A DNA stretch of 64,000 bases from NCBI GenBank assembly GCA_963422375.2, contig OY729428.2, positions 416,001 to 480,000 of the forward strand, in the 5' to 3' direction. This document shows, piece by piece, positions 30,001 to 48,000 of the stretch (positions are counted from its first letter, which is position 1; each line of letters opens with the position of its first letter). Made by a program: the position numbers. The DNA is from Bryobacterales bacterium (GTDB taxonomy: Bacteria; Acidobacteriota; Terriglobia; Bryobacterales; UBA6623).

Positions 30001-33000
30001 TGGGCGGTGCGCAACAGCGGCATCATGGTCCATTCCCCGGCCCCGGACAGCATGGGCCGCGACCAGACCTTCCCCATCTCGATCGAGATCCAGCTTCTGG
30101 GAGGCACCGGCGAGCGCGAACGCACCACCGCGAACCTCTGCACGCCCGGGACGAACGTCGTCTTCGACGGCAAGCTCGTCACGCGGCACTGCACGAACTC
30201 CAAGTCGAAGACCTACCACGGCGACCAGTGGGTCCGGGCCGAGGTCATGGTCCTCGGTAGTTCCGTGATTCGCCACATCCTCGAGGGCGAGGTGGTTCTC
30301 CAGTACGAGATGCCCCAGATCGGGGGAGGCAACGTCGACGGGCACGACCCGGCCCTCAAGCGCGACGGCAGGTTGCTCGAGAGCGGGTACATCTCGCTGC
30401 AGAGCGAGAGCCATCCCGTGGAGTTCCGCAAGGTCGAGCTCCTGAACCTCGCGGGATGCATGGACCCGAAGGCGTCGAACTACAAGTCGTACTTCGTCAA
30501 GTCCGAGCCGGAGACCTGTCGCCCCTAGCCCGGGCGGCGGCGAGCCGTTCAGCCGGGGCGGACCGCAGAGACGATGGGTGCCGGTTCGTAGGTTCCCAGC
30601 ACAGCTTGGAACTCGGTCATCTCTTCGAGGTGGCGCATGGCGTTGGAGCAATTCGTGTCGTCCGGCGAGGCGAGGATGTCGACGTAGAACAGGTATTCGT
30701 ACGGTCGGCCCTTAAGCGGCCGCGACTCGATCTTGGTCAGGCTGATGTCGCGCAGGGCGAACGCGCTCAGGCACCTGAAGAGCGCTCCGGGCACGTTCTT
30801 CGTAACGAACACGAGCGAGGTCTTGCGCGGCCCGCCCTGGACGAGGCTGACGGAGCGTTGCGGCCCCAGCAAGAAGAAGCGAGTGTAGTTCTCGCGGTCG
30901 TCCTCGATTGACGCCTGCAGGATCTTCGCTCCGTAGAACTCGGCCGCGGCCGAAGAGGCGACGGCTCCCAAGCTGTCGTCGGCCCCTTCCATCACGGTCT
31001 TGACGCTGCCCCCGGTGTCGTAATGGCTTTCGGCGCGAATCCTCGGGTGACCTCGGAAGAACTCGAGGCACTGGGATAGGGCTACGGGGTGCGAAATGGC
31101 CCGCTCGATCCGGTCCAGCGCGGACTCAGGCCGCCCGATCAGGTTATGCACGATGCGGACATGGGTTTCCGCGAGGATGGCCGGCTTGAAGTGCAGCAGA
31201 TTGTCATAGTTCTCGTGGACCGAGCCATACAACGTATTTTCGACCGGGATGACCGCGTAGTCCGCGATGCGGCGACGCAGTGTGTCGAACGCGTCGAAAA
31301 ACTTCTCGCATGGGGCGAACTCGACGTCGCGTCCAGCAAGGATCTGGCCGCAAGCCAATTCGCTGAACGCCCCGCGGGCACCTTGGAATGCGACCCTGAC
31401 CCGATCCATCAACGTATGCAGCGGACTGCGCACGCTGCACGCGAGCAGTTCCGATGCACCGCCCGCCTAGATTATACGGCCCTGACGCGGTCGACAGCGG
31501 TGCCGTCAAGTAACGGCGGACAGAGCGTGGCGGCCACCCCAGTCCGAGCTTCCGCCCCAAGCTCCGGAGGCCGTCATGCGCGCCGAAACAAGCTTCGAGA
31601 CGGTTGCCTCCATCAGGGTCACGCTGCACTGGATCTGCACAGCCAGTTCTGGTAGCAGGCGTCGCAGGCGAACGGTGTGCAACTCTCCATCAGAACCGGC
31701 GATCGCAATCTCCCGGAACAGTCGATCGCTTTGAGTCAGAGATTCCATCGTCCTAGCGGGCGCTAGATGCTCCCGCGTCCAGCACTCAATGCTCGCCGCC
31801 GACATAGGCGTCGTCGACCTGCACCATGCACTCCTACGGGCGATCGCCCTCGCAGCCGTGCGTGACCTGCATGAGCCTGTGCCCGAGCTTCCAAGCCGAA
31901 ATATGGTTCACACCCCGCTGGCAAGCCGGTTTGAGCGCCGAGATGCCATTCTTCCCTTGCGAGAGCAGGTAGATGGCAAAGGACCAGACGGCCAGCGACA
32001 GGATGGTGATTCGGGGCGCGGAACTGTCGAGCAGCAAGACCTGGTGATTGCAGCTGCTTCACTGCTCGGCGCGGGCCGAGGCGGCAGCAGCTCCGCGAGC
32101 CACGAGCAGGACAGTGTATTTCGCGCTCCGCGCGGCACCGCAGAGGGTGGCGGCTGAGACAGGCGCATCAAAGATCTCGGGGCGCGATTAGAGACCCGCC
32201 TGCAGGTACGCGATGACGTCCGCAATCTCTTGGTCGCTCAAGGAGTCTTCCAACCCTTCCGGCATGAGCGATACGGACGATACGCGAATATCTTCGACGT
32301 CGCTCTTCAGGACGGTGACGTCTTCAAGCTCGCCGCGCAGGGTGACCGTCGCGGCGGACTCGGCCACGAGGATTCCATCGAGAAACCGACCGTCACGGGT
32401 CTGGAGCAGGTGGTTTCGATAGCGGTCTTCAATCGAGTAGCTCGGGTCGAGGATGCTGGTGAGCAGAGTTTCCTTGCTTCGGTTGCTAACTCCGGAGAGG
32501 TCCGGCCCGATTCGCCCACGGGTACTGCGACGCAGATGACAGGAGGCGCACTCGCGCTCGAACGCGCCTCTGCCACGGCTAGGATCCGACCGCAGATCCA
32601 GGGTCGGCATGTGGGCCTCAACCACGCGGTCCCTCGCGTCGACGAGCAGTTCGAGACGGCCTGCAACACGGACTCTGACCTCGGCGTCGGGATGATTCTC
32701 CAGTCGAATTCGAGTAACGGCGGGAATCAGTTGCGGCTGGACGCGGCCGTCCTCGATCGCGTCCGCGAGTGCCAGCGCGTGGTCGCGGCGTCTCATGAGC
32801 GATTCTGCCACGGCGCCACGGACAGCCGGGTCGTAGCGCCTCCAGCCGGCAAGCAGCACCGCGGAAGCGGCCGGGCCGGGGAATGAAGCAATGGAAAGCG
32901 CTGCCTCCGACCTGATGGCGGTCCGGCCCGGCCCCTGCAGCACAGCATCGAGGACCTCGACCACATCCTCGAACAAGCCGCCCCGCAGAATCCGAATCGC

Positions 33001-45000: not shown

Positions 45001-48000
45001 GTCGTTCGCCGAGTTCTCCCCGGACGGTTCGCGCGTCGCGTTCGCTTCCGACCGCGACGCCCAGTCGCGCTACGAGTTCAACGTCTACGTAGCGGACTGG
45101 AACGGGCCCGGACGCCCGCGCTGAACCCCGGCGCCCGGTTTCAGGGCCGGACCTCGCGCTCGAGCGAGGCTATGCGTCCCCCAGCTGCCGGGCCTGCCTG
45201 CGCGGGAGCGCCAGCCTCTCGGCGATCGACGGAGCCACTGGCTCGGACCCTGCGCTTCCGGCGCCGGAGCCTCCCCGCCGGCCGGGGCCGGATCGTCCGC
45301 GGGCATGCGGCTTAGGTCCGCGAGCTCGAACGTGTCCTCGTAGACCAGATCCTCGCCCATCGCGAGAACGACCTTCCTGAGCTGCGGCATGCACGCCGAC
45401 TCCGCCTGGATGTAGATCGACTCCACGTACACGGGGCTCTCGCCAACGGGCGCGGCATTCATCTCGCCGCGCAGCACGCGGGACCCCTGGTGGTTCCACG
45501 GCGTGAGATCGCGGGCGATCTGCTGCTCCTGGTTGACCTGCGCCTCGATCCGGTTGGGGCCGTATACCAGCTCCTGCTTGGAGAGCTGGTAGAAGATCAG
45601 GTCGCCCAGCAGGTCGCCGCCATCCAGCCCTTCAGGTTGTCCTTGTTGGCCGACGTGAACGGCAGCATGAGCAGCAACTCGGGCTCGGTCTCGCCCGGCA
45701 CGGTGGCCACGATGCACGTGGGCTGCATCCGCTCGGCGAGTTCGGTGTCGCCGGCGAGGGTCTGGCCGACGTCCCAGACATCGTCCTTGTGTCGAAGACG
45801 GTCGGGTCCCGCATGTGGAACGTGCGGTAGATTTCGGCTTGGATGTTGAAAATCAGCTCCGGCAAGCGCACGTGCGCAAGTACCGAGGCGGGCATCGCCT
45901 CCATCGGCTGGAACAGCCCGGGCAACAGATTCGCGTGGGCCCGGATGATCGGGTCGCTGTCGTCGAAGAGGTAGGACTCTCTGGTGCCGTGATAGGCATC
46001 GACCGTGGCCTTGACGGCATTGCGGCTGTAGCTGACCTCGGCGTTGAACTGGCCCATGCGGATCGACCGCGAGTAGGGATGCGCGTGCGATGTCGCGTGC
46101 GCGACCGCAGGTTCGCTGGCGTCCACGAAGTGGCTGCAGCGATCACGGCGCACTTGGAGCAACGGAACAAGCGTCCAAGGCCCTGCCAGCGCTGAGAAGA
46201 CCTAGCCCCGCCGGCTCGGACCGGCAGGCTCCTGAGGCAGCCCCGACCTGATAGCGCTGCGCCAAGGCTCGGAACACTAGAAGCGGTACTTCACCGCGTA
46301 CTGCCAAACCCTGGGACCGCCGCCACGACCGACGCCTCCGACCGCACTGAGCAGCCCGGCCGTCGGCGAGTTGAACGGCTTCATCTCCCGCTGGATGATG
46401 AAGTTCGTACGATTCGCGATGTTGAAGGTCTCGATCCGCAACTGCAAGCGATGCCCCTCCGCCAGCACGAAATTCTTCGTCAGACCGGTGTTGATCGACA
46501 CCAGCCCGGGCCCGTCGAGTATGTTCCTGCCCGAGTTGCCGAGGGCGAACGGCGAAAAGCCGCTCCCTTGCGTGCCACAATCGAACACGCCGGTCTCGAT
46601 TTCCTCGCACGACGGCACTCCGACGAAGGCGTCCAAGTCGTACCACGGGAAATCCACGCCCTTCTTGCCCAGCGATGTGTTCCGGTCCACCCTTCCGTTG
46701 GCGATCCGATTGGGTCGCTGGGATTCCCCTCGGTTCAGGTCGGGGTTCGCCGTGGTCACCGTCAGGGGCGAGCCGCTGTACGCGGACGCCGTTCCCGACA
46801 GTTGCCAGCCTCCTAGCACTGCCTCGGCAACCGAGCCCCAGTTCTTGCCCCAGTGCCTGCCCTTTCCGAACGGCAGCCGGTAGTTCCCGACCATCGTGAA
46901 GACGTGCCGCCGGTCCCAATCCGAGCGACCTCGATCCAGCCGCAGGTTCCGCGAATCAAGGGCTTGCGGGAATCCGCCCTCCGACTGGCCGTTGGCTTGA
47001 GAGGCATCGTCAATCGTCTTCGAGAACGAATAGTTCACCCTCCAGAACAGGCCTCCCCTGCTGCGCTTTCTCCAAGAAGCGTTGAAGGCGTTGTAGCTTG
47101 AATTGGCGCCGGTTCCAAAGATCTGAATTCCGTTCCACTCCGGGATCGGCCTCAGAAATCCCTCGCCCTCGATCAGCGAACTCGCCGTACGGTACGGCTG
47201 GTTGAAATCGTACCGGCGAATCAGGTACGTGCCTTTCGAGCCTCGATAATCCACCTCGATGGATGTATTTCCGAACAGCGCCCGCTCAATCGTGAAGTTC
47301 CAGGACTGCAAGTACCCCGTGCTCGGATTCAAATCGTATCCGCGCACGGTCGTCGTTCCCGCCAGCCTCTCGCGCGTGGTCGGAAAGGGGTTCTGCAGGG
47401 AAACCTCGTTGGGCCTCACGTTGACACCGGGAAAATTCTGCACCACGGCGAACGGAAACTGATTCGAAAGGTTGTTCCTAAGGTTATTCAAAATATCGCC
47501 GGCCAAGAAGATTCCGTATCCACCGCGAACGACAGTGCTATCGCTCACCCTGTAGGCGAAGCCCAGCCGAGGAGAGAAGTTGTTCCAGTCCGTGTTGATC
47601 ACCGACCTCGGACGCCCGGCCGCTTGAGCGGTTGTGATGACGTCGCCGAGACCCGTCTCCTCGAGCAAATGCGAATAGTTGCTTGGGACGTTTTCATCGC
47701 TGGCAAGGATCAGCTGTTTCGACATCGTGTCGTAAACACCCAACCGGTCGTACTTGTCGGTCGGAGCGCGGTTGACCTCCCACCGCATTCCGATGTTCAG
47801 CGTCAAGTTCCGCGTAGCCTTCCAGTCATCGTTGATGAACGCACCCATCGCAAGCTGCCGCCAATAGTTTCGGTTGAAACCCAGCTGGCGATTCACGTTG
47901 TGAACCCAGCCGAGCTGCAAGTCAGCTATGGGATTCATGGTCCGTCGGCCGCGGAAGAAATACGTCCCGCGCTGGTTGTTGAAAAACGGCTGGTTGAACT

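Follow-up and report, generated by a model that had tools for sequence, protein, structure and literature searches.

Can a large bacterial chromosome persist without a condensin or a known replacement for one? To our knowledge, SMC complexes are treated as near-universal chromosome organisers, and natural losses in large bacterial genomes are rare and usually ambiguous, as divergent homologues may hide. The question arose at the smc locus of a Bryobacterales genome (Acidobacteriota; 6 Mb, 3 contigs, completeness score 96.44%), within a 64,000-nucleotide stretch of contig C2 (positions 416,001 to 480,000; the window below). The initial annotation held that the genes of the whole SMC-ScpA-ScpB complex had gone from the places they occupied ancestrally and that neither MukBEF nor MksBEF had taken over, and the core of this reading holds. 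Its details changed in several places.

Absence of smc, scpA and scpB

In a Pfam profile search of the genome, the SMC hinge (SMC_hinge, PF06470), the ScpA kleisin (PF02616) and the ScpB kite subunit (PF04079) each gave 0 matches at E<=1, and there were 0 first-look candidates for ScpA. A full-length SMC profile from 10 congeners, run with default filters against the six-frame translation, reached a best E of only 0.14, whilst tblastn with the ScpA and ScpB of genome G057 gave best E values of 4.8 and 1.2, respectively. The proposed absence of all three genes is thereby borne out.

The earlier HMM comparison had covered mainly 20 relatives; here it takes in 76 genomes of the family together with a sample of the phylum. 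The hinge was found in 30/30 congeners and in 74/76 other family genomes; ScpA in 30/30 congeners and in 148 of the 150 phylum genomes with a completeness of 95% or more (145/147 without the unpublished G095, G115 and G201); and ScpB in 30/30 congeners and 74/76 family genomes. That scpB is common in the family was right, and indeed it is near-universal, but the count first given (71/76) is corrected to 74/76. The subject genome is the sole condensin-free member among 31 of its genus, and the loss is genuine and lineage-specific.

The smc site

In 10/10 congener loci examined, smc lies between pheA, directly downstream on the same strand, and a TolB-like gene, which is upstream and divergently transcribed. 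These flanks are homologues of C2 446580-447409 (pheA) and of C2 460160 onwards (TolB-like), and the two subject genes share 68-79% and 70-85% amino acid identity, respectively, with the smc-adjacent genes of congeners. This synteny confirms that smc is missing between the two genes, where 12.7 kb of other DNA is found (Table 1).

Table 1. Features of the pheA to TolB-like interval, in window coordinates
Feature	Position	Strand	Evidence
pheA (prephenate dehydratase + ACT)	30549..31433	-	Pfam PDT E 1e-50, ACT
smc 3'-end remnant, decayed	31506..31685	-	DNA profile, tblastn, alignments
IS1595-family relic, decayed, internal part	31806..32008	-	match to ISb nt 519-721
DUF7133/HEAT-repeat/cytochrome c protein, 1044 aa	32188..35322	-	Pfam DUF7133 E 7e-117
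ISa copy, young, 1514 bp	35561..37074	-	Pfam: IS1595 zinc ribbon, partial DDE match
RND efflux operon	37816..43773	+	Pfam OEP, HlyD_D23, ACR_tran E 1e-248
RND outer-membrane factor	37816-39135	+	Pfam, operon gene 1
RND membrane-fusion protein	39132-40682	+	Pfam, operon gene 2
AcrB-type RND pump	40687-43773	+	Pfam, operon gene 3
Right-hand joint, 286 bp	43774..44059	.	without similarity to congener sequence
TolB-like PD40 beta-propeller gene	44060..45124	+	Pfam PD40 E 1e-27

Pfam bears out the IS1595-type copy already reported in this insert, and adds the DUF7133/HEAT/cytochrome c gene and the RND efflux operon. The DUF7133 gene is foreign to the site: none of the 25 smc/pheA neighbourhoods examined in congeners or relatives has it. 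Counterparts of the RND operon occur elsewhere in 25/30 congeners at 63-69% nucleotide identity, in neighbourhoods that differ between G057, G075 and G073; the operon may have reached the smc site either by translocation or by acquisition. The right-hand joint has no second copy in the genome, and sensitive blastn against 5 congeners gave it no similarity to their smc 5' end or smc/TolB-like intergenic sequence, with alignment beginning only at about window position 44159.

The initial annotation had described the losses as leaving not even remnants. This is true of scpB-scpA, but directly upstream of pheA we found about 110-180 bp of the smc 3' end, spanning about SMC residue 1147 to the stop (~55 codons). 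A DNA profile of the last 360 nt of smc from 10 congeners, run with default filters, had its two best matches in the genome at C2 447568-447678 on the reverse strand (E 4.3e-4 and 1.7e-3), and in tblastn limited to 1.1 kb at the remnant three of four SMC queries matched (E 7e-6, 3e-5 and 0.026). The stop codon is aligned with the smc stop of congeners, a 17-codon internal deletion is present, and six residues are replaced in a stretch of 18 that hardly varies among congeners. The replacements and the deletion therefore speak for long drift rather than a recent variant. A promoter/terminator scan of the remnant region found neither.

Beside the remnant lies the IS relic, which is 69% identical to ISb over 206 nt (E 5e-19) and whose translation contains in-frame stops but still shows a transposase HTH together with the beginning of the DDE region. 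Because the remnant adjoins this decayed IS1595-type relic, the loss of smc is better described as an IS-associated rearrangement than as a clean deletion: the site is a rearranged patch that contains, besides the adjoining remnant and relic, the DUF7133 gene, the young IS copy and the RND operon. About 120 bp of unassigned sequence separates the relic from the securely aligned remnant, and an IS-mediated event is thus likely rather than certain.

The scpB-scpA site

Of the two clean deletions originally proposed, only that of scpAB keeps this description. In 9/10 congener loci, C2 2124273-2124279 marks the end of the rluB homologue. In G057, 1918 bp with scpB-scpA are flanked by matches to C2 2124273 and 2124564, and all of this is missing upstream of rluB in the subject genome, as had been claimed; 290 unalignable bp stand in place of the 1.9 kb.

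Support for the assembly

Both junctions are reproduced with 0 differences in independently assembled Logan contigs from public runs of two studies, which carry two organism labels. pheA, the remnant, the relic and the DUF7133 gene lie together on a contig of 9271 bp (110x, run X2) and on another of 6699 bp (22x, run X6), and one of 7185 bp covers the stretch from the RND operon to the TolB-like gene, all with 0 differences. A third study contributes fragments at low depth, the 8 pieces listed showing 0 differences. One of the runs that support the joints is possibly the one from which the genome was assembled, and is to that extent not fully independent. Hi-C libraries are available for the same sample and study; in the ~1% sampled of Hi-C run X7, 0 reads fell on the stretch.

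IS load and state of the genome

ISa has 83 copies that measure 1300 bp or longer, 68 of which reach an identity of at least 90%, and its summed contig depth is ~250-340x that of the flanks (run X2). There are 88 copies of ISb, each of ~1035 bp. Its 310-aa ORF carries the full DDE_Tnp_IS1595 domain (PF12762, E 1e-31) and the zinc ribbon (PF12760, E 1.5e-13), and with an N-terminal zinc ribbon, DDE_Tnp_IS1595 and a length of ~1 kb the element fits, on these sequence grounds, the IS1595 family. Repeats make up 691 kb (11.5% of the genome), and the 304 IS1595 DDE candidates are the most in the genus (2-150 in congeners). This very high IS load, which the initial annotation did not mention, is the likely agent of the loss.

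General decay of the genome, as stated, was rejected. In an evenly spaced sample compared with G057, with searches against syntenic parts only, two of 160 conserved genes were frame-shifted; frameshift pseudogenes are therefore not frequent, and the exceptional trait is the IS load. Near both loci, deletions of 10 and 13 nt have put 2/~27 conserved gene clusters out of frame. The 16S gene is present as a single copy.

Search for replacement complexes

The reported lack of MukB, MukF, MksE and MksF families was upheld. The MukB N-terminal domain (PF04310) gave nothing over its 23-bit cut-off and one 16.6-bit match in a 279-aa frame; the MukF kleisin (KicB, PF03882), MksF/JetA DUF3375 (PF11855) and MksE/JetB DUF4194 (PF13835) were each without any match at E<=1. 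No MksB/JetC ATPase was found either: of the two AAA_29 matches over cut-off, one is a YhaN/AAA_27 protein and the other a RecD2 helicase, and the only protein that a PADLOC model for JetC touches is RecN (E 2e-5).

The frames with an SMC_N or AAA_29 signal were assigned to RecN, RecD2, UvrA, FtsK, TraG and two TrlF/Ppl anti-phage ATPases, the remainder being an OLD/Gabija-like ATPase and a prophage Rad50-like protein beside RecT. As substitutes, the TrlF/Ppl-type ATPases, the Rad50-like protein, RecN, UvrA and RecD2 were rejected upon assignment to these other families. The YhaN/AAA_27 protein, a 1183-aa coiled-coil ATPase, was also rejected: 30/30 congeners have a YhaN-like gene alongside SMC, and it is thus not a lineage-specific replacement.

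Among the genes said to be kept, parA-parB and recN are intact. For ftsK, the assembly makes retention of the gamma domain doubtful: its coding sequence is present, but a 1-nt deletion in the assembly (C1 ~1419655) shifts it out of frame with the motor, whereas it is in frame in 30/30 congeners.

DISCUSSION

It is very probable, in our assessment, that this lineage genuinely lost Smc-ScpAB, without MukBEF or MksBEF, by the following routes. An IS1595-associated rearrangement would have removed smc from its promoter to about codon 1146, leaving the last ~55 codons beside pheA. DNA from elsewhere, with the DUF7133 gene and the RND efflux operon, would have been joined to the site, and the remnant and the IS relic would have decayed afterwards. 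Upstream of rluB, scpB-scpA were taken out in an event of their own, a deletion of 1.9 kb; they may have been useless without SMC or may have been lost first. Chromosome segregation presumably proceeds by ParABS, FtsK and topoisomerases alone, and with a single rRNA operon growth is presumably slow. The frameshift of the ftsK gamma domain, if real, fits poorly with FtsK compensating.

With three contigs and 96.4% completeness, a copy of smc and scpAB on DNA outside the assembly (an unbinned contig, a plasmid, or sequence collapsed in large repeats) is strictly possible, and C1 and C3 do end inside a ~40-kb repeat. This repeat explains the contig breaks, however, and its third copy, fully assembled in C2, has no smc. 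A hidden copy would further require that the assembly had missed all of three unlinked genes, whilst both ancestral sites are continuous within C2 and one bears a decayed remnant; smc was therefore destroyed in place rather than moved, and we regard such a hidden copy as exceedingly improbable. It is also highly improbable that a condensin-less haplotype happened to be assembled whilst smc-bearing conspecifics coexist or dominate elsewhere. The source does appear to be mixed-community or host-associated sequencing, and the stretch was compared with contigs only, which drop rare variants. Nevertheless, the same joints recur across two studies and two labels, the third-study fragments agree, and the decay of the remnant implies a long drift.

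A further reading is that an unrecognised substitute keeps the condensin function, be it an SMC-like ATPase that has diverged very far or a system without homology. Published Hi-C work (PMC10197239) describes arm alignment in bacteria without recognisable condensin and proposes unidentified complexes, and the genome does encode the large YhaN/AAA_27 ATPase. We nonetheless consider a substitute unlikely, given that all frames giving an SMC_N or AAA_29 signal have been assigned to other families and that SMC-bearing congeners all have the YhaN-like gene. A non-homologous substitute would be invisible to sequence searches. Very unlikely, in our estimate, is the stronger claim that there is no loop-extruding SMC complex at all and that its loss is causally tied to the IS1595 burst and the 40-kb repeats, such that chromosomal Smc-ScpAB would normally restrain transposition or ectopic recombination. 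Its basis is a single co-occurrence, with one condensin-free genome among 31 and 304 versus at most 150 IS1595 candidates. The parallel would be Wadjet and Smc5/6, which restrain extrachromosomal DNA. Were the claim true, this genome would be a natural knock-out showing that Smc-ScpAB restrains transposition or ectopic recombination.

Excerpts of PMC11898615 and PMC4634966 describe smc deletion mutants that are viable in Corynebacterium glutamicum and, if slow-growing or suppressed, in Bacillus subtilis, and invoke FtsK and slow replication for this viability. As far as those excerpts go, such laboratory mutants share with our case that cells live without Smc-ScpAB. In the present genome, by comparison, all three subunits have been lost in nature, and long enough ago that the remnant has decayed. 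C. glutamicum keeps MksBEFG, whereas no MksBEF is left here as a second SMC complex.

Akkermansia muciniphila, Bacteroides caecimuris and Muribaculum intestinale have, in the excerpts of PMC10197239, no recognisable condensin homologue, and the likeness is that homology searches find no Smc-ScpAB, MukBEF or MksBEF. Those cases are whole lineages in which very divergent homologues may hide, whereas the loss described here is unambiguous because the close relatives all keep the canonical genes and the syntenic sites show the scars of deletion. Amoebophilus asiaticus, an amoeba symbiont of the IS-laden 'genomes in transition' type in the excerpt of PMC3196728, is alike in its exceptional IS enrichment alongside gene loss; the present genome differs in still being 6 Mb with few frame-shifted genes in the sample. 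A literature search, not exhaustive, found no account of a member of Bryobacterales or Acidobacteriota that has lost condensin.

The loss is a further case of an already known rarity, and it offers a rare natural test of a large bacterial chromosome without condensin or a known replacement. The subject genome and its congeners, at ~75-80% nucleotide identity, form a natural comparison pair, which can be used to probe how loop extrusion is replaced, what becomes of arm alignment, and whether heavy IS activity brought about the loss, followed from it or merely accompanies it.

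Absence of Smc-ScpAB and its presence among relatives

The genome (5,995,950 bp in three contigs, C1 to C3; completeness score 96.44%) gave no match to the SMC_hinge, ScpA or ScpB families at E ≤ 1. A full-length SMC profile built from 10 congeners reached a best E of 0.14 against its six-frame translation, and congener ScpA and ScpB used as tblastn queries a best E of 1.2. The three families are near-universal among its kin. SMC_hinge is present in 30/30 congeners and in 74 of the 76 other family genomes, the two without it being assemblies of 980 and 340 contigs; ScpA is present in 30/30 congeners. 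For ScpB, the initial annotation was right about near-universality, but its figure of 71/76 family genomes becomes 74/76 (the two without are in 340 and 380 contigs). Across the phylum, ScpA was found in 148/150 genomes (an even sample, completeness ≥95%), a tally that counts the unpublished genomes G095, G115 and G201, all positive; without these it is 145/147. Relatives retrieved with the PheA protein as query are public MAGs that carry the label Bryobacterales or Bryobacteraceae (Acidobacteriota).

The smc site

Gene order at the smc site was taken from the window ORFs and their Pfam assignments (table), and compared with the 20-kb smc neighbourhoods of 10 congeners. In all 10, an SMC frame of 1226-1455 aa lies between sequences matching C2 446580-447409 (pheA) and C2 460160 onwards (the TolB-like gene), which bears out the position previously proposed for the missing gene. 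The gap between these two genes is 4.1-8.3 kb in the congeners versus 12.75 kb here, and in 25 related loci none of the genes that fill it occurs in the vicinity of smc or pheA. Counterparts of the RND operon occur in 25/30 congeners (63-69% identity) at other chromosomal places and in varying neighbourhoods. The right-hand joint has no similarity to the congeners or to anywhere else in the genome.

Positions of the features discussed (window coordinates unless a contig is named)
Feature	Position	Strand	Remark
TPP-dependent enzyme gene	22722-24367		acetolactate-synthase-like
3.85-kb insertion	24365-28219		
1.76-kb multi-copy element	24603-26363		
Sulfatase gene	26722-28218		
pheA	30549-31433	-	
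99-aa ORF	31506-31805	-	
IS relic	31806-32008		
DUF7133/HEAT/cytochrome c gene	32188-35322	-	Pfam
IS1595-type transposase ORF	35265-36935	-	Pfam; 556-aa frame
Young ISa copy	35561-37074		between DUF7133 gene and RND operon
RND efflux operon	37816-43773	+	Pfam
Right-hand joint	43774-44059		
PD40 TolB-like gene	44060-45124	+	Pfam
1.3-kb duplication, copies	44813-46095; 51432-52732		direct
CarboxypepD_reg/beta-barrel gene	46277-49690		1137 aa
ftsK gamma domain (1-nt deletion)	C1 ~1419650-1419832		outside window
~40-kb repeat, complete copy	C2 1307817-1350163		
MFS transporter gene	C2 ~2125404-2126752		neighbour of scpAB site
Recombination module (L030)	C2 2461644-2465267		prophage-like
TrlF-family/Ppl-like ATPases (L031; L032)	C1 203503-206148; C1 548058-550841		anti-phage

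The initial annotation held that not even remnants of smc were left. This is wrong: a 3′ remnant lies directly upstream of pheA. Congener SMC matched C2 447575-447685 by tblastn on the expected (-) strand, with a genome-wide E of only 0.18; confined to the 1.1-kb syntenic stretch, three of four queries gave E-values of 7e-6, 3e-5 and 0.026, and the fourth no homologous alignment. A DNA profile was also built from the 3′-terminal 360 nt of smc in 10 congeners; over the whole genome its top two matches were C2 447568-447624 (E 4.3e-4) and C2 447619-447678 (E 1.7e-3), the third-ranked match being already at E 0.04. When the C-terminal 120 SMC residues were used as a protein profile, the remnant frame ranked second genome-wide (E 0.007), after an ABC ATPase. 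The alignment starts at about SMC residue 1147 and runs to the C-terminus, lacking 17 codons; it has six replacements within an 18-residue stretch almost invariant in congeners, and its stop codon is in register with that of congener smc. It follows that smc was truncated in place and that the stump has since drifted.

An IS relic lies about 120 bp beyond the remnant. It matches nt 519-721 of ISb, a 1035-bp element coding for a complete IS1595-family transposase, with 69% identity. When translated, the relic shows the transposase's HTH and the beginning of the DDE region, and it contains stops. Given this relic at the joint, the genes not shared with the related loci and the young copy of ISa (the 1514-bp IS), the loss of smc is part of an IS-associated rearrangement, not the clean excision first proposed. 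An IS is the likely cause of the loss.

Other changes occur nearby in the window. The 3′ end of the TolB-like gene, together with the 3′ part of the UPF0182 gene, is present as two direct copies of 1.3 kb (90.1% identical over 1312 bp), which flank a 5.3-kb insert with a CarboxypepD_reg/outer-membrane beta-barrel (TonB-dependent-like) gene; congeners have the sequence in single copy and lack the insert. Where congeners have ~30-60 bp, the 3.85-kb insertion carries a sulfatase gene and a multi-copy element, two frames of which gave no Pfam match.

The scpAB site

This site lies outside the window. In 9/10 congener loci, the end of the rluB homologue maps to C2 2124273-2124279. In the compared genome G057, 1918 bp with scpB and scpA lie between matches to C2 2124273 and C2 2124564; the 290 bp here show no alignment to that stretch and no scpA or scpB remnant. 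For this site the description as a clean deletion holds.

Assembly check

The smc stretch was found in public runs of three studies, and we compared contigs of three runs over window 30000-46500; the assembly itself may derive from one of them. X2 gave a 9271-bp contig (depth 110) over 30000-35586 and a 7185-bp contig over 37048-44232, X6, from a different study, a 6699-bp contig over 30000-34362, and X1, from the third, short low-depth pieces, all with 0 differences. Contig breaks fall only at multi-copy IS, where the summed depth is up ~250-340-fold. C1 and C3 terminate within a ~40-kb repeat whose third copy is complete in C2, and the gaps are therefore repeat-induced rather than unknown DNA. 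This repeat, possibly an integrative element, has about three copies (97-99.9% identity; C2 and both ends of C1 and C3), encodes ~640-aa ParB_N-domain proteins and holds all C1 and C3 contig breaks.

Search for a replacement

As initially annotated, the genome has no MukB (a single match scoring 16.6 bits, short of the cut-off) and no match to KicB/MukF, DUF3375 or DUF4194. SMC_N exceeds its cut-off in RecN only. Further long P-loop frames belong to an 1183-aa YhaN/AAA_27 protein, RecD2, UvrA, FtsK, TraG, IF-2, two TrlF/Ppl-type anti-phage ATPases, an OLD/Gabija-like ATPase and a Rad50-like protein adjoining RecT and a PD-(D/E)XK nuclease in a prophage module. The YhaN-like protein was rejected as a lineage-specific condensin substitute because 30/30 congeners have its gene alongside SMC.

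The Rad50-like ATPase (~580 aa, CxxC hook-like motif) matches no Pfam family, and the nuclease beside it is also Cas4-like. L031 and L032 match NCBIfam TrlF_fam_ATP at E 2e-133 and 4e-104.

Genome context

The genome carries 83 ISa copies (≥1300 bp) and 88 ISb copies (≥900 bp); repeats (≥500 bp, ≥90% identity) make up 366 segments and 691 kb, 11.5% of the genome. IS1595 DDE candidates number 304 here versus 2-150 in the 30 congeners, many of which are fragmented and hence undercounted. The frame of the window ISa copy fits the DDE profile only to position 70/153, at residue 202, and many other copies align in two pieces split at residue ~203; either two frames are used or the window copy is frame-shifted.

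Frame-shifted genes are uncommon: near the two loss loci, 2 of ~27 conserved clusters are affected (10-nt and 13-nt deletions), and across 20 samples of 20 kb, spaced evenly along G057, just 2/160 matched genes were split. The 10-nt deletion lies at ~23141-23177 in the TPP-dependent enzyme gene, relative to G057 and the compared genome G075; the 13-nt deletion is in the MFS transporter gene. There is one 16S gene.

parA and parB are intact, as annotated. The ftsK gamma domain, also said to be kept, is present but, through a 1-nt deletion, out of frame with the motor as assembled; in 30/30 congeners it lies in frame within a 762-1107-aa frame. At the conserved D-D-P-M-Y junction, three congeners read GA(T/C)CCNATGTAC versus GATCC-ATGTAC here. 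Because the gamma domain remains well conserved (93.7 bits), the frameshift either arose very recently or reflects a consensus error.

Comparison with known cases

With three corrections (the smc remnant, the IS-associated rearrangement in place of a clean smc deletion, and the ftsK gamma frame as assembled), the core reading stands: the whole Smc-ScpAB complex has undergone a genuine, lineage-specific loss without known replacement. Viable smc deletion mutants are on record. A Hi-C study describes three gut species without a condensin homologue and suggests that unidentified complexes exist (PMC10197239). This organism is a further member of the same rare class; it differs in that every close relative has the canonical genes and the scars of their loss are visible.
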